From a virus (lineage: Duplodnaviria > Heunggongvirae > Uroviricota > Caudoviricetes), in IMG/VR virus record IMGVR_UViG_2698536647_000005: a stretch of DNA of 25,289 nucleotides; one strand, written 5' to 3'. The notes beneath the pieces are model-generated. The model ran no database searches, was not told the DNA's origin, and saw nothing but the letters and a program-made list of their open reading frames with translations. The position numbers and the translations under genes were made by a program. This document shows, piece by piece, positions 14,163 through 24,947 of the stretch; position 1 is the stretch's first letter; the number at the start of each line of letters is the position of its first letter.

Positions 14163-14192
14163 TTGATTTTGTCCGAAGTTGTCGTGTATGCT
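14163..14192 (+). promoter_or_regulatory. Putative late promoter (pR'-like)
   Basis: TTGATT (14163-14168), 18-nt spacer, TATGCT (14187-14192), about 40 nt upstream of a strong terminator. Would give a transcript of roughly 50-60 nt, analogous to lambda 6S RNA. Confidence 0.35.
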
Positions 14193-14232
14193 TCTAATCA
14201 TGCGGAGTAACGCCTGAAAGATTTAAACAATA

Positions 14233-14254
14233 AGCCCCTTGCGGGGCTTTTTTA
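14233..14254 (+). terminator. Intrinsic terminator (tR'-like), possibly bidirectional
   Basis: Stem AGCCCC, loop TTGC, stem GGGGCT, then TTTTTT. Abuts the stop codon of the convergent minus-strand gene 14252-15202. Confidence 0.7.
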
Positions 14255-15202
14255 TGGCAGCGAGTTAACGAAAGAACTGAAAAGGGCCTTATCTTTATTG
14301 CTAATTGATTTTTTCAAATGTAGTTGATGATTTAAAGGTTTAAAGTTTTCCTTTGTGAGATATATACATGCTTTCTCAAAACGATCCTGAAGGAATTGAA
14401 ATCTTTCATTCAGCCTGGAAACTTTTAATCCTAATGACATGACCTTCTTCTCAGGAATATCGTCAGGATTGCAATTATTGAGTTCTTCCAGCACAAGGCG
14501 AATATCTCTTTCGAAGATTAGCGCTATGTTATAATCGTTGAGGAGGCATTCAGGATTACGAACAATGCCAATTACTTCGTCGATGAATTGTGGTTTTACA
14601 TTATCCTCAGCATTTTCATCTTCGTTATCGGAAGGTTTTTGAGACATAACATTCGACAACTGCATTTCTTCCTTGGTTTTCCTTCTGGGAAGTAAAACTT
14701 TTCCATCTCCTAAAGCAGCCATACGTTTCAAAGCTTGACTCCCGGCTCGGCCAACTACTTTAGAATCTCTTAAATCTAAAATTTTATGTGCGACCCATTC
14801 TAATGATGGTTCACTGGCTTCGATTTTGGCTTTTGCTTGGTAATGGAGAAAAATATTTTTCTTGGCTTCCTTGAGGGCTGTTAGATATCTGTGGAAATTT
14901 GCCTTTTTCTCGAGGTCAGTGGCTAGGTTTTCAAATGCTATACCGAAGACTTTTGTACCGCAAACGTGACCCAGGTTCGTCTCCAGACCATCCTCAGTAA
15001 GAACAAGAAACCCTTTTTTATGGCCTGTTCGACAGCTCGACTTGCCACACGGGATTTCTTCCGGGAGGTCATCATAATAACCAAAAACATCGGATAATTG
15101 TTGATCGGTCAGTTCCAGCCTGGAATGATAGCTTTCCCGAGCTTGAATTTCTGTCCAGTCATTAATGCGATCAAAGCTATTGCCGTTTTTAATAAAAATC
15201 AT
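14252..15202 (-). CDS. Orphan hypothetical protein, 316 aa, low GC, antisense to the late operon (cargo gene)
   Basis: Uninterrupted 951-nt ORF with an AAGGGA ribosome-binding site. Visibly more AT-rich than flanking phage DNA (my estimate; not computed). Opposite orientation to all neighbours. Contains a C-x4-C ... H ... H-x-C cluster but no motif I recognise. Confidence 0.6.
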   Translation of the reverse strand: MIFIKNGNSFDRINDWTEIQARESYHSRLELTDQQLSDVFGYYDDLPEEIPCGKSSCRTGHKKGFLVLTEDGLETNLGHVCGTKVFGIAFENLATDLEKKANFHRYLTALKEAKKNIFLHYQAKAKIEASEPSLEWVAHKILDLRDSKVVGRAGSQALKRMAALGDGKVLLPRRKTKEEMQLSNVMSQKPSDNEDENAEDNVKPQFIDEVIGIVRNPECLLNDYNIALIFERDIRLVLEELNNCNPDDIPEKKVMSLGLKVSRLNERFQFLQDRFEKACIYLTKENFKPLNHQLHLKKSISNKDKALFSSFVNSLP

Positions 15203-15317
15203 ATCTTCCCTTGCTCTGGTTAGATTGAAAGCACTGCCGCTTGATATTTAACCATTTCCCTGATTGTTTTTCATCATAAAACCATATTATTGCAAGGGTA
15301 GTTTTACCTATGTATCT

Positions 15318-15394
15318 TCTTGCTCCCGGCCCTTTAGCTCAGTTGGTTAGAGCGTGCGACTCATAATCGCCCGGTCGCTGGTTCAAGTCCAGCA
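15318..15394 (+). tRNA. tRNA with CAU anticodon, ileX-like (tRNA-Ile2; tRNA-Met not excluded)
   Basis: Cloverleaf folded by hand: acceptor stem GGCCCTT/AAGGGCC, D-arm GCTC..GAGC, anticodon loop CTCATAA, T-arm GCTGG TTCAAGT CCAGC, 3' CCA. Close to E. coli ileX as recalled from memory. Confidence 0.8.
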
Positions 15395-15396
15395 AG

Positions 15397-15470
15397 GGCC
15401 ACCAGACCGCCACTAGCTCATCGGGAAGAGCGGCAACCCAGGTGTTGTGGTACGGGGTTCGAGGCTCCGG
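15397..15470 (+). tRNA. tRNA-like element with a non-canonical anticodon loop (possible pseudo-tRNA)
   Basis: Perfect acceptor stem CCGCCAC/GTGGCGG with discriminator and CCA, a D-arm GCTC-ATCGGGAA-GAGC and a T-arm CGGGG-TTCGAGG-CTCCG. The anticodon arm folds only as stem GCAAC/GTTGT with a 6-nt loop CCAGGT, or as a 4-bp stem with an 8-nt loop; no 7-nt loop is possible. Confidence 0.5.
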
Positions 15471-15482
15471 TGGCGGACCACT

Positions 15483-15558
<76 letters not shown>

Positions 15559-15561
15559 TAT

Positions 15562-15636
<75 letters not shown>

Positions 15637-15831
15637 GTTTAAGCTTTTCGGTCTGCGATGATGGGGTCCCCGGAGTGACTGAAAAGCGACCTAGTTTTGA
15701 ATGGGCGCTGCTTTTTGCAAAATTGCTGTGTGAAAATGCTGACCTTTGGGTTCAGCGCTCATCCAAAAGCATCTCGTTAAAATCCAGTTAACCTCGGGTG
15801 GTTTGTTGGGTGAGGTGCCTCAAATTCAAAT

Positions 15832-15856
15832 AGCCTCGCTTCGGCGAGGTTTTTTC
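15832..15856 (+). terminator. Intrinsic terminator
   Basis: Stem AGCCTCGC, loop TTCG, stem GCGAGGT, then TTTTTT. Confidence 0.65.
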
Positions 15857-16073
15857 ATTTGTAAGACAACCATCAGGAAGCAATGGCTAATCTCATTGAC
15901 TGCAGGAATAAGTTCGGCGTAATTTATTTCTGTGGTGAATCCTTTCTAAGCGAAAGGGCGTTCCAGCCAACTGCTATCTGCAGGTATGCGCGCGACTTTG
16001 CTGGCTGGAGTAGAGTCACCGGGAGGCACCCGGCACCATGACAACTACAATACAAGTTTCAAATTCCTTGAGA

Positions 16074-16101
16074 GCCTGCCATTAAACGCAGGCCTTTTTT
16101 T
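16074..16101 (+). terminator. Intrinsic terminator
   Basis: Stem GCCTGC, loop CATTAAAC, stem GCAGGC, then CTTTTTTT. Confidence 0.6.
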
Positions 16102-16240
16102 ATGGTTTTGCAAACTGCTGCTACGCTTTGAGTTGTGGGAAGTAACTGAATGCCCGGTGGTTCTCCTGGACCGATAGTGAATCAGCCGATACAGCTTCAC
16201 CTCTGAGCATAAGTCTTACTCACACCTACCTTACAAATAG

Positions 16241-16269
16241 TCAACTCATTAGCCCGCTATCAAAAGCGG
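16241..16269 (+). terminator. Intrinsic terminator immediately upstream of the lysis cassette
   Basis: Stem AGCCCGCT, loop ATCAAA, stem AGCGGGCT, then TTTTTTT. Confidence 0.7.
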
Positions 16270-16380
16270 GCTTTTTTTATTTCAGGCTCCGGGAACCATC
16301 ATCGACATGACTGCTTGTTAAATCGTCCCGAGGGCCTGACCCCTTACACACAGCTCCCGCCATTACGCGAGGAGATAGAG

Positions 16381-16629
16381 ATGATCCGATATATGCCTGA
16401 CAAAATTGCATCCGCAGTCTCGTATTGCGTGTCCGGCAGTCTTATTTGTGGAGGCGGCATTTTGCAATGGTTGCACGACCTCGACTGGAACAAGGTTGCA
16501 GTGATTGGCGGATTTCTTATCGGCATCGCCACATACCTGACCAACCTTTACTTCAAAAGACGCCAGACCAAGGCATACGAGAAGGCCCTAAAGAAGGGCT
16601 ACATCACCGCGCCACCACAGGATAACTAA
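16381..16629 (+). CDS. S: Pinholin, S21-like, with a dual-start motif (second ATG at 16393), 83 or 79 aa
   Basis: GAGGAG ribosome-binding site. Two transmembrane segments and a basic C-terminus; IATYLTNLYFKRR matches the P21 S21 pinholin signature LTYLTNLYFK recalled from memory. The MIRYM double start is typical of holin/antiholin pairs. Immediately followed by a SAR endolysin. Confidence 0.8.
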   Translation: MIRYMPDKIASAVSYCVSGSLICGGGILQWLHDLDWNKVAVIGGFLIGIATYLTNLYFKRRQTKAYEKALKKGYITAPPQDN

Positions 16630-18338: not shown

Positions 18339-18364
18339 AGCCTCGCTTATGCGGGGCTTTTTTA
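18339..18364 (+). terminator. Intrinsic terminator
   Basis: Stem AGCCTCGC, loop TTAT, stem GCGGGGCT, then TTTTTT. Confidence 0.65.
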
Positions 18365-19937: not shown

Positions 19938-21834
19938 GGGGCTGCAGCACTCTGCGCGCGCGGGTCTACTTTCGCTGTACCGACCTGAGCCGCAAACGGC
20001 GGTTGAATGGGCAGACGATAATTACTATCTCCCCAAAGAGTCGGCCTACCAGGAAGGGCGCTGGGAAACGTTGCCGTTTCAACGCGCGATCATGAATGCG
20101 ATGGGTAACGATTACATACGTGAGGTCAACGTTGTTAAGTCTGCCCGTGTTGGCTATTCAAAAATGTTGCTGGGTGTTTATGCGTATTTTATTCAGCACA
20201 AGCAGCGAAATTCCCTTATCTGGCTGCCTACTGATGGTGACGCCGAAAACTTTATGAAGTCGCATGTTGAGCCGACGATTCGCGATATTCCGTCACTTCT
20301 GGCGCTGGCCCCCTGGTATGGAAAAAAGCACCGGGACAATACGCTCAGTATGAAACGCTTCTCCAACGGTCGCGGGTTCTGGTGTCTGGGTGGTAAAGCG
20401 GCGAAAAACTATCGTGAGAAATCGGTCGATGTCGCCGGTTACGATGAACTGGCGGCGTTCGATGAAGATATTGAGAAAGAGGGATCCCCGACGTTCCTGG
20501 GTGATAAACGTATTGAGGGGTCTGTCTGGCCCAAATCTATTCGCGGCTCAACGCCAAAAACAAAGGGGACCTGCCAGATTGAGCGTGCTGCCAGCGAGTC
20601 CGGGCATTTCATGCGTTTTCATGTTGCCTGTCCGCACTGTGGTGAAGAGCAGTACCTTAAATTCGGCGACAAAGAGACCCCGTTCGGGCTGAAATGGACA
20701 CCGGGCGAACCCTCCAGCGTCTTTTACCTGTGTGAACATAATGCCTGCGTCATTAAGCAGCAGGAGCTGGATTTCACTGAAGCTCGTTACATCTGCGACA
20801 CCACCGGGATCTGGACGCGCGACGGTTTATCCTGGTTTTCATCAACAGGCACCGAAATCGACCCGCCAGACAGCGTGACGTTTCACATCTGGACGGCATA
20901 CAGCCCGTTTACCACCTGGGTTCAGATCGTTAAAGACTGGCTAAAAACGAAAGGGGATACAGGAAAGCGTAAAACCTTCGTGAACACCACTCTGGGCGAA
21001 ACATGGGAGCCTAAAATTGGTGAACGGCCTGACGCGGAGCTCATGGCCGAACGCAAAGAGTTCTTCGGGGCATCCGTACCGGAGCGTGTTGCTTATCTGA
21101 CAGCCGGGATCGACTCCCAACTGGATCGATATGAAATGCGCGTCTGGGGATGGGGGCCCGGTGAGGAAAGCTGGCTGATTGACCGGCAGATCATTATGGG
21201 CCGTCATGATGATGAAGCGACCCTCGTCAGGGTGGACGAGGCGATTAACAAAACCTATCTCCGAAAGAATGGCGTGGAAATGTCGGTATCCCGTATCTGC
21301 TGGGATATCGGCGGTATTGACCCCACCATTGTCTACAATCGCTCAAAAAAGCATGGTTTGTTTCGCGTGATCCCGATTAAAGGGGCTTCCGTTTACGGTA
21401 AGCCTGTCGCGAATATGCCGCGTAAACGCAACAAGAACGGCGTTTATCTGACGGAAGTGGGGACTGATACCGCAAAGGAGCAGATTTATAACCGCTTCAC
21501 ACTTCAGCCGGAAGGGAGTGAACCTCTTGCCGGTGCCGTGCATTTTCCCAATAACCCCGAAATTTATGATCTGGCTGAGGCGCAGCAGCTTACTGCTGAG
21601 GAGCAGGTTGAAAAATGGGTGGACGGGCGTAAGAAAATCGTCTGGGACAGCAAAAAGCGACGAAATGAGGCGCTGGACTGCTTCGTGTACGCGCTGGCTG
21701 CCCTGCGGATCAGTATTTCGCGATGGCAACTGAATCTTGATTCACTGCTCGCGAGCCTACTGGAGGAAGAGGGGAACCGGACCAATAACAAAACCCTGGC
21801 TGATTATGCCAGGGCATTATCTGGAGATGAATAA
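19912..21834 (+). CDS. A: Terminase large subunit A, 640 aa
   Basis: Collinear high similarity to lambda gpA (MNISNSQV ... PQTAVEWAD ... [28 protein letters not shown] ...). GTG start 26 nt inside the nu1 3' end, as in lambda. Confidence 0.95.
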
Positions 21835-23629: not shown

Positions 23630-24947
23630 TCTCCCGCACATTGCCAGTATGGCCTTCAATGAGCCGCTTTTACTTGAACCCGCCTATGCGCGGGTTTTCT
23701 TTTGTGCTCTCGCTGGTCAGTTAGGTATCACCCGTCTGACCGACACCGTGTCGGGCGTGACGCTAGGTGCAGAGCAGATGGCTGAACCGCTGGCTCTCTT
23801 TGGTGATGATGAGGACATGGGCCCAAAACCAGCGCGAAGCTACCAGGTTACTGATGGTATCGCGGTGCTGCCTGTTTCCGGGACGCTGGTCAGTAAAACC
23901 CGCTCACTCCAGCCGTATTCGGGGATGACGGGGTACAACGGCATCATCGCCCGCCTCCAGCAGGCAATCAGCGATCCGGGTGTAGACGGCATTCTTCTGG
24001 ATATGGATACGCCAGGTGGAATGGTGGCGGGTGCCTTTGACTGTGCGGACATCATCGCCCGCATGCGGGATATCAAACCCATCTGGGCGTTAGCCAACGA
24101 TATGAACTGCAGCGCTGGCCAGCTGATTGCCAGTGCGGCATCACGTCGGCTTGTGACCCAGACGGCCAGAACGGGATCCATCGGGGTCATGATGGCCCAC
24201 AGCAATTACGGCGCCGCCCTTAAAACCAGCGGCGTTGAGGTCACGCTGATTTACAGCGGCGATCACAAGGTGGACGGGAACCCCTACGAGAAATTACCCA
24301 AAGAGGTACGCGCAGATTTTCAGGCGCGTATCGACGCTACCCGGCAGATGTTCGCTGAAAAGGTGGCGGGTTATACCGGCATGTCGGTTCAGGCCGTTCT
24401 TGATACTGAAGCAGCTGTGTTTTCAGGCCAGGAATCAGTTGACAACGGCCTGGCGGAGCAGCTGGTCAACAACATGGATGCGCTGAACGTTATGCGCGAT
24501 GCAATTAACAAACGAACGATGATTTCCCGAGGAGGAAGCATGAAAGGTACTACTGCATCCGCAGATACCACTCAACCAGCAGCATCTGCTGACCAGACCG
24601 TGACCACCGTTGACGTGCCTGCTGCGGTCGTTACTGACCCTGCAGCGGGCGCAACTGTTGATATCAGCAGCCAGGTGGCAGCGGCGGTCGCAGCCGAAAA
24701 CGGTCGCATTATGGGGATCCTGAACTGTGAAGAGGCGAAAGGGCGTGAATCACAGGCGCGCGCGCTGGCGGAAACGCCCGGGATGACGGTGGAAAGTGCC
24801 CAGCGCATCCTTGCCGCGGCTCCTCTGAGTGCTCAGGCGCGTACGGATACCGCGCTGGATCGTCTGATGGAAACCGCACCCGGCACCATAACGGCAGGTA
24901 GCGCTTCTGCCGAAGCGGGTGACGATTTGTTAAATACGCCTGTTTAA
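23610..24947 (+). CDS. C: Head maturation protease / minor capsid protein C (ClpP/S49-like), about 445 aa
   Basis: Matches lambda gpC from [18 protein letters not shown] onward. Start at ATG 23610 with a GGAGGGG ribosome-binding site; the track ORF starts 5 codons upstream. Confidence 0.9.
   Translation: MTPELRNLPHIASMAFNEPLLLEPAYARVFFCALAGQLGITRLTDTVSGVTLGAEQMAEPLALFGDDEDMGPKPARSYQVTDGIAVLPVSGTLVSKTRSLQPYSGMTGYNGIIARLQQAISDPGVDGILLDMDTPGGMVAGAFDCADIIARMRDIKPIWALANDMNCSAGQLIASAASRRLVTQTARTGSIGVMMAHSNYGAALKTSGVEVTLIYSGDHKVDGNPYEKLPKEVRADFQARIDATRQMFAEKVAGYTGMSVQAVLDTEAAVFSGQESVDNGLAEQLVNNMDALNVMRDAINKRTMISRGGSMKGTTASADTTQPAASADQTVTTVDVPAAVVTDPAAGATVDISSQVAAAVAAENGRIMGILNCEEAKGRESQARALAETPGMTVESAQRILAAAPLSAQARTDTALDRLMETAPGTITAGSASAEAGDDLLNTPV
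24540..24947 (+). CDS. nu3: Putative scaffold protein Nu3, nested in frame within the 3' third of C, about 135 aa
   Basis: Internal in-frame ATG at 24540 with a strong GAGGAGGAAGC ribosome-binding site. A nested in-frame scaffold gene is the known lambda arrangement. Confidence 0.55.
   Translation: MKGTTASADTTQPAASADQTVTTVDVPAAVVTDPAAGATVDISSQVAAAVAAENGRIMGILNCEEAKGRESQARALAETPGMTVESAQRILAAAPLSAQARTDTALDRLMETAPGTITAGSASAEAGDDLLNTPV

Follow-up and report, generated by a model that had tools for sequence, protein, structure and literature searches.

A predicted tandem array of three non-coding RNA units between the antiterminator and holin genes of an Escherichia coli lambdoid prophage

The window analysed here (25,289 nucleotides of a Caudoviricetes virus, IMG/VR record IMGVR_UViG_2698536647_000005) derives from an Escherichia coli lambdoid prophage, and the stretch at issue is the 744 bp that run from the end of a tRNA-Gly gene at 15636 to the ATG of a holin gene at 16381. 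This stretch is probably a tandem array of three plus-strand non-coding RNA units, morons lying between the late promoter and its terminator (pR'/tR') and the lysis cassette. A first-pass annotation, made from the sequence alone, had described about 740 bp of non-coding DNA between tRNA-Gly and the holin gene; the span, 15637-16380, is exact, and the open reading frames (ORFs) within it are not conserved. Three of 5426 complete E. coli genomes contain the stretch with 100% identity, and their annotations carry no feature and no ORF across it.

In the proposed arrangement, the first unit would be the tRNA operon, with its own sigma70 promoter and a structured 3' trailer of ~220 nt ending at terminator T1, the second a small RNA (sRNA) of the STnc100 family with its own promoter and terminator T2, and the third an RNA of ~145 nt that starts from an extended -10 promoter and stops at terminator T3. 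Transcription of each unit in the lysogen would be separate and halted by its own terminator, and T1-T3 would also stop both these transcripts and any that leak from pR' from entering the holin gene. Upon induction, polymerase modified by the antiterminator Q would start from pR', pass tR', T1, T2 and T3 and continue into the lysis and structural genes. The RNAs would most likely act in trans as chaperone-bound base-pairing regulators, by analogy with STnc100/EcOnc27 and the Pas sRNAs, a role suggested by the family of the middle unit and by the sRNA-like build of the others (structured 5' part, unpaired tract and U-tailed terminator). The features of the array and of the tRNA cluster ahead of it are as follows.

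15290-15318, plus strand: putative promoter of the tRNA operon, TTGCAA-N17-TATCTT, 9 nt from the tRNA 5' end.
15328-15636, plus strand: tRNA cluster of tRNA(CAT) (Ile according to PGAP), a degenerate tRNA-like element, tRNA-Thr(TGT) and tRNA-Gly(TCC), from ARAGORN, Rfam and PGAP.
15643-15687, plus strand: trailer hairpin A, an 11-bp stem with a conserved internal loop and a GGG/CCC tip (-20.2 kcal/mol, z -3.25).
15695-15818, plus strand: trailer core, a two-domain structured RNA with 42 consensus pairs in alignment A3, 10 of them with compensatory changes.
15832-15856, plus strand: T1, terminator of the tRNA operon and its trailer, stem 15832-15851, T-run ending at 15855/6; an annotated terminator in phage HK639.
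15896-15925, plus strand: putative promoter of the STnc100 unit, TTGACT-N18-TAATTT, with a predicted start near 15932.
15899-16105, plus strand: STnc100-family sRNA (Rfam RF02076, by cmscan), the body probably ~15932-16101.
16074-16101, plus strand: T2, the STnc100 terminator, stem 16074-16093, T7 run to 16101; an annotated terminator in HK639.
16119-16127, plus strand: putative extended -10 element of the third unit, TGC-TACGCT.
16128-16278, plus strand: third RNA (U3), with a helix P1, two small hairpins, a single-stranded C/U-rich tract at 16223-16250 and a terminator.
16251-16278, plus strand: T3, terminator of the third unit and last barrier ahead of the holin gene, stem 16251-16272, U7; annotated in HK639.

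The middle segment, by its match to the covariance model, is a member of the STnc100 family. A cmscan search of Rfam, one of the checks named in the first-pass annotation, found STnc100 here at 53.1 bits (gathering score 47, E 5.8e-9) over the full length of the model (positions 1-206), and the copy in HK639 scores 52.6 bits. The first ~30 positions of the RF02076 model align to apparent promoter DNA in the window. The earlier statement that the corresponding region of Shiga toxin (Stx) phages encodes regulatory sRNAs holds for this segment, as the family is documented downstream of stx2 and in the late regions of further prophages, with one copy lying 75 nt downstream of stx2 (PMC12370729) and an overlap with the Hfq-bound EcOnc27/sRNA103 downstream of stx2B (PMC12711010). 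Eleven copies are present in E. coli O157:H7 EDL933, where they are transcribed and a Northern blot verified one of them (PMC5331693); in Salmonella, STnc100 promoters are occupied by RpoD (PMC10794520); and the family has been linked to PasD of enteropathogenic E. coli (EPEC; bioRxiv 10.64898/2026.05.13.724894). The window copy shares with the family its place in the late region of a lambdoid prophage, an enterobacterial host and an intrinsic terminator. Other copies occur in tandem in Fels-1 and downstream of stx2. The window copy represents a distinct subfamily with a modest score (53 bits compared with 138 bits for one Fels-1 copy), a different promoter region and, in the collected loci, a third unit as its partner.

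In all, 47 distinct close variants of STnc100 were recovered. The region ahead of the RNA was compared across three unrelated upstream families. The pattern TTGAC-N17/18-TAnnnT is kept in nearly all of 41 distinct variants, the spacer and the 6-7 nt past the -10 hexamer vary freely, and conservation resumes at GUGGUGAAUCC, which pairs within the RNA. Such a pattern would be expected of a sigma70 promoter from which transcription begins near 15932. An A/C-rich, (AAN)n-like tract ahead of T2, ACAACUACAAUACAAG, which reads (CAA)n in relatives, appears to resemble the ARN motifs that bind the distal face of Hfq, and the tract at 16040-16070 is a candidate pairing seed.

The third segment was followed by scanning IMG/VR with its core, which returned 77 viral contigs and 58 distinct variants with full flanks. 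In 56 of the 58, loci that had been chosen for unit 3, the STnc100 core lies ~140 nt upstream, and units 2 and 3 together form one conserved block of ~385 nt (15896-16281) with sharp edges at the -35 hexamer and at the end of the T3 T-run. Just past T2, CTGCTGCTACGCT is nearly invariant. The -10 hexamer of the third unit reads TACGCT, TACTCT, TATGCT or TACACT, with the TG dinucleotide and T1, A2 and T6 of the hexamer always kept; no -35 element is present. The retained positions are those that mark an extended -10 promoter; transcription beginning near 16132-16135 would yield an RNA of ~145 nt, about 16133-16278. A covariance model (R1) scores 179.6 bits at U3 and matches all 81 of the loci searched, with the terminator intact in each of the 79 full-length matches. 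Minimum-energy folds share one plan, including P1, in 23 of 30 distinct variants. P1 is a long-range helix that joins GUGGG... with ...CUCAC, and its inner part differs among at least five sequence types while remaining complementary. The C/U-rich single-stranded tract at 16223-16250, ACACCUACCUUACAAAUAGUCAACUCAUUA, is a candidate pairing seed in which the number of CUAC repeats varies. Between phages, the CUAC(C) repeats (16226-16234 and homologues) range from CUACCUUAC to CUACCUACCUACCUUACUUAC, which looks like slippage in the presumed seed.

There is no Rfam family match for U3. The 3' halves of U3 and STnc100 give a local alignment score of 32, compared with 15.3 +/- 1.8 in shuffles, and on this similarity U3 is probably a diverged tandem paralogue of STnc100. 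The same similarity, together with the near-constant STnc100 core upstream and a proposed promoter that consists of an extended -10 element without a -35, would also suit a segment that is not an independent unit, whether a 3' extension of a longer STnc100 isoform made when polymerase passes T2 or a tandem STnc100 copy without activity. This alternative is considered unlikely, given that T2 is strong and has a U7 tail, that TGnTAnnnT keeps precisely the positions a promoter needs while the others vary, and that unit 3 has a conserved body, a P1 helix maintained across sequence types and a terminator intact throughout the full-length matches. Among species-representative genomes, the unit 3 core had a single match, in Enterobacter sichuanensis.

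The first-pass annotation had read the stretch as a tandem sRNA cluster. This stands for the middle segment and, in that they are conserved RNAs with comparative support for their folds, for its two flanks; segment 1 (15637-15856) is instead the 3' trailer of the tRNA operon and not a separate gene, with T1 as the operon terminator, a reading that follows from the tRNA cluster having a conserved putative promoter of its own. The -35 (15290-15295) and -10 (15313-15318) of this promoter belong to a geometry, TTGC[AG]N-N17-TAT[TC][AT]T-N9-tRNA, which 41 of 43 distinct upstream variants retain while their spacers vary. Within the cluster, the element at 15407-15480 is reported by ARAGORN as 'tRNA-???' with an abnormal anticodon loop and has no tRNA match in Rfam at threshold; its homologue in PhiR47_1 is annotated as tRNA-Lys (40.4 bits), and the window copy looks like a degenerate tRNA.

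In the trailer core, 97.3% of cells in the alignment are paired, compared with 36-50% when partners are slid; the 18-mer with which the homologues were collected is invariant by construction. Hairpin A has three pairs with compensatory changes across 16 variants and is absent from some relatives, including some tRNA-linked copies. The palindrome noted in the first-pass annotation, GGGGTCCCC, is present at 15663-15671 at the tip of this hairpin, where relatives read GGG-N3/4-CCC with a variable loop; this makes it an RNA hairpin tip, and as a DNA palindrome it is not conserved. E. coli genomes with a trailer homologue at ~76% identity number 536 of 5426 (about 10%), and the homologues inspected lie directly after the same tRNA cluster, ahead of a terminator and holin gene. 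Rfam searches of segment 1 at permissive E-values gave weak, terminator-driven matches only, far below threshold; for segments 1 and 3 these were istR (26 bits), isrB (22.5) and Trp_leader (23.2). The AAAUUGCUG loop of the trailer is a candidate pairing seed. The collecting 18-mer, TTTTGCAAAATTGCTGTG, was also seen in unrelated AT-rich viral contigs (L107-L109, L129, L132, L151, L156 and L163) that have no other similarity, which may reflect chance or a shared short motif.

A trailer that served only tRNA maturation and termination, through its 3' processing sites and terminator and without a regulatory role, would account for its position directly 3' of tRNA-Gly in 59 of 91 variants and for its ending in the operon terminator. 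Such a limited role is improbable, however, as the covarying two-domain fold of 125 nt exceeds the needs of processing. The core also occurs without an upstream tRNA (L032, L079, L089, L161, L123 and L158), some tRNA-linked copies lack hairpin A, and part of the core is present in Fels-1 away from tRNAs; this distribution argues for a role of the trailer beyond tRNA processing.

Trailer RNAs of tRNA operons include 3'ETS-leuZ, from glyW-cysT-leuZ, and the RtT RNA of the tyrT operon. As in those cases, segment 1 is non-coding RNA sequence between the last tRNA and the intrinsic terminator of the operon; it differs in being phage-borne, longer (~220 nt) and folded into two covarying domains, and no sequence or Rfam model match links it to RtT or other described trailer RNAs. 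Release of the trailer by processing, and any sponge activity, is hypothetical.

The array lies in the late leader downstream of a gene for a Q antiterminator of 278 amino acids (aa; Pfam PF03589, a domain called the Qlambda family; PMC9388147). The flanking features of this leader are as follows.

14163-14192, plus strand: putative pR' late promoter, TTGATT-N18-TATGCT, 20 nt past the Q stop codon, as read from the sequence.
14232-14256, plus strand: putative tR', a bidirectional hairpin of -12.1 kcal/mol with U6 behind it, the first terminator in the late leader.
16279-16380, plus strand: short holin leader with the ribosome-binding site (RBS) GAGGAG, where a promoter-like site was not found.
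16381-16629, plus strand: P21-type class II holin gene, first late gene (Pfam PF04971, 76.3 bits; PGAP).

The promoter and terminator at 14163-14256 are taken to be pR' and tR'; the same layout directly after Q is found in phages Fraca and SaltyDalty. The holin gene is followed by genes for lysozyme and spanins, and the interval 16279-16380 is conserved along with the class II holins of other prophages and not with the RNA block. Since no promoter-like site was found between T3 and the holin gene, the lysis and structural genes would rely on upstream transcription. T1-T3 stand between pR'/tR' and promoter-less lysis genes, and late expression would require polymerase to pass all three. Once loaded with Q, polymerase disregards terminators for thousands of bp (PMC9388147), so that polymerase loaded at pR' should pass tR' and T1-T3. 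This placement supports the earlier suggestion of stacked terminators that need Q for read-through, and the evidence as a whole supports the sRNA-cluster and stacked-terminator readings at once, with discrete transcripts being inferred. A put-like RNA antiterminator, as in the early operons of HK022 and HK639, was considered and rejected, as a self-antiterminating unit with its own promoter ahead of the holin gene would express lysis constitutively.

Different combinations of the units are found in different phages. HK639 (GenBank HM208537) carries the same three-terminator array, its terminators annotated by the depositors, with identities to the window of 100% (segment 1), 98% (segment 2) and 78% (segment 3). 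It differs in its Q, which belongs to the Q21 family (PF06530) and is unrelated to the Qlambda-family Q of the window, in having tRNA-Asn and a tRNA-Gly with a diverged 5' half in place of the four-tRNA cluster, and in its lysis cassette; RNA genes and ORFs are unannotated across its array. The occurrence of the array behind both Q families implies that it is not tied to one antiterminator. In HK639 (L002), the tRNA-Asn at 3846-3920 is missing from the GenBank annotation, and the tRNA-Gly copy at about 3925-4000, identical to the window in its 3' half and diverged in its 5' half, is probably a pseudogene.

Unit 1 is missing from Fraca and SaltyDalty, which have units 2 and 3; unit 3 is absent from most prophages that carry unit 1, and in many related prophages the tRNA trailer is followed by just one terminator. 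Fels-1 (L204, 1273-3028) has three tandem STnc100 matches (138, 59 and 83 bits) between Q and holin; a partial copy of the trailer core lies at 2501-2575 in the same interval. Non-conserved sequence flanks the block 15896-16281, and the Q family preceding it and the lysis cassette following it differ between phages, as is characteristic of a moron. On the strength of the differing combinations in HK639, Fraca, SaltyDalty and Fels-1, the units therefore act as promoter-to-terminator cassettes (morons) that can be exchanged and that accumulate in the leader between Q and holin. In another viral contig (L190), the STnc100 core CACCGGGAGGCACCCGGCACC stands immediately upstream of the tRNA(CAT) gene, so the modules also occur in other orders.

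A comparable setting is that of the Pas sRNAs of EPEC prophages, which adjoin the holin/lysozyme operon (bioRxiv 10.64898/2026.05.13.724894). In E2348/69, PasA, PasC and PasD1/2 are Hfq-dependent sRNAs between Q and the holin/lysozyme operon of lambdoid prophages, with PasD reported as STnc100-related and as having a seed for pairing with CUCACA motifs in its targets. Sensitive blastn of segments 1-3 against the PasD, PasA and PasC loci of this strain revealed no relevant similarity, and the E2348/69 Pas loci have no STnc100 match at threshold and no unit 3 match. These blastn and Rfam comparisons revealed no relationship of the segments to the Pas RNAs; PasB, a tail-region locus, is irrelevant to the comparison.

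All three plus-strand terminators described in the first-pass annotation are present. The ends given for the first two (15856 and 16101) are right, while the third terminator ends at ~16278, the 16269 given for it falling inside the 3' arm of T3. Folding, a further check named there, found the hairpins of T1, T2 and T3, each with six or seven T after its stem, to be stable (-13.4, -12.8 and -15.1 kcal/mol; z-scores relative to shuffles between -4 and -5). A loose terminator scan gave no enrichment over shuffles (six found, 5.6 expected). In a strict scan (stem of >=6 pairs with >=4 G-C and <=1 G-U, >=6 T in 8, 40 dinucleotide shuffles), the whole window had seven plus-strand sites, compared with 0.55 +/- 0.63 in shuffles, and three sites fell inside 500 nt, where none of the 40 shuffles had more than one. 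The strict scan also listed terminators at 6363-6390, 18339-18358 and 23676-23697 on the plus strand and at 6743-6760 and 21793-21815 on the minus strand.

It could be argued from the terminators that the stack is an insulator only, in which selection acts on the silencing of the lysis genes in the absence of Q and the bodies between the hairpins are spacers or decaying remnants. Four terminators do stand in series before a promoter-less holin gene, the depositors of HK639 annotated terminators only, and the RNAs have no assigned function. The whole bodies are conserved, however, and not the hairpins alone; the bodies contain compensatory base-pair changes; the promoter hexamers ahead of each unit are conserved where the spacers vary; and the middle body belongs to a family of expressed, Hfq-associated sRNAs. 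As many related prophages manage with one terminator after the trailer, a stack of three is unnecessary, and an insulator without RNA genes is rather improbable, compared with the array of RNA units favoured here.

The putative STnc100 promoter bears a likeness to lambda pR' (L203, 754-782), with the -35 hexamer TTGACT, GAAT 4 nt later and the -10 hexamer TAAWTT in common, and most variants retain the GAAT. This promoter and late promoters may have a common origin. Taken further, the likeness could mean that the promoter derives from a lambda-type late promoter, as its relic or as a second copy, with STnc100 being a 6S-like leader and Q possibly loading or repressing there, and the resident Q does belong to the Qlambda family. 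The lambda pR'-6S RNA-tR' cassette resembles the array in giving short terminated transcripts in the interval from Q to holin. Yet the window has its canonical pR'/tR' right after Q (14163-14256), and the STnc100 unit lacks a sigma-dependent pause element: nothing like AACGAT, which lambda has at +1 to +6, follows the start, and the conserved GUGGUGAAUCC at that place pairs within the RNA. An identical STnc100 promoter is present in HK639 with its unrelated Q21-family Q, and the STnc100 of Stx2 phages lies downstream of stx2 and not at pR'. With these points, a late-promoter origin of the STnc100 unit in this sense is very unlikely. The lambda 6S RNA was also considered as a relative of STnc100 and rejected, the lambda 6S region giving no match to the family.

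Several points weigh against an array of three separately expressed RNA units. Its transcription starts, RNA ends and Hfq binding, like transcription itself, read-through by Q and action in trans, are all inferred from sequence, and the three RNAs have no assigned target or function in this phage. The promoters are weak by consensus (8-9 of 12 positions) and a promoter scan of the sequence did not list them; comparison of variants, which bears on the sigma70 check suggested at first pass, gave conserved promoter-like elements for all three units. Homologues were collected with exact seeds from the window, which makes the seeds invariant by construction and biases the sample to close relatives, and the figure for the near-constant linkage of unit 3 to STnc100 comes only from loci that had been selected by unit 3 itself. 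The covariation check came out in part: compensatory pairs number 10 in the trailer core and three in hairpin A, and RNAalifold on a plain MAFFT alignment of U3 detected none, a result attributed to misalignment of the variable P1 arms. In a model-fitted U3 alignment, 86.9% of cells are paired, compared with 35-45% when slid, and six P1 pairs change on both sides. Support for U3 comes from single folds and from this fitted alignment, and because the latter leans towards the structure of its own model, the U3 structure is rated as moderately supported.

The two longest local ORFs encode 52 aa (15883-16041, with an AGGA RBS) and 63 aa (15986-16177), and the SaltyDalty record has three small hypothetical coding sequences (L010, 3092-3366) over the STnc100 and unit 3 block, which, as the ORFs are without conservation, are probably over-calls. 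That the stretch encodes small proteins, for which these ORFs and annotations and the ribosome footprints on some EDL933 STnc100 copies (PMC5331693) could be cited, is extremely improbable, as a start, frame and absence of premature stops coincide in just 10 of 58 homologous variants for the 52-aa ORF and three of 58 for the 63-aa ORF, substitutions in both have no third-position excess, neither has a Pfam match and the start at 15883 lies outside the conserved block.

For the most part, the stretch is an ordinary feature of lambda-like prophages: its middle RNA falls into a described family, and stacking of this kind has precedents in Fels-1, Stx phages and HK639. Rfam has no name for the trailer RNA or for unit 3, and a full-text literature search with characteristic sequence strings found no paper on them. 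It is a tentative suggestion, held with somewhat less than even confidence, that the two flanking RNAs represent undescribed families of prophage regulators, the trailer being a chaperone-bound sponge or regulator similar to 3'ETS-leuZ and unit 3 an STnc100 paralogue with a C/U-rich, anti-Shine-Dalgarno-like seed. If so, the leader between Q and holin would serve lambdoid phages generally as a site at which regulatory RNA genes are gathered and reshuffled, as Q renders the terminators of such genes harmless. The window is a compact example of stacked promoter-to-terminator cassettes exchangeable between phages with unrelated Qs. Prophage sRNAs at this position (STnc100/EcOnc27, Pas, AgvB and AsxR) reprogramme the expression of host and virulence genes in pathogenic E. 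coli. The trailer RNA is found in roughly 10% of complete E. coli genomes and has never been annotated there. If expressed, the trailer RNA and unit 3 would enlarge the accessory sRNA repertoire and provide a phage counterpart of regulators derived from tRNA spacers; if not expressed, the stretch would be an ordinary and largely known feature.

Two minor observations concern the late leader upstream of the array. In a common E. coli prophage with the same tRNA cluster (L003, 3044-3095), pR' reads TTGATT-N16-TAAATT-CGTCAT-AACGATGGG and holds the exact lambda sigma-dependent pause element, which the pR' of the window does not. Between the bidirectional tR' hairpin and the tRNA promoter, an ORF of 316 aa lies antisense in the leader (14252-15202, minus strand); it has no Pfam or PADLOC match and matches phrog_7003, a family of unknown function, with an E-value of 3.5e-118.

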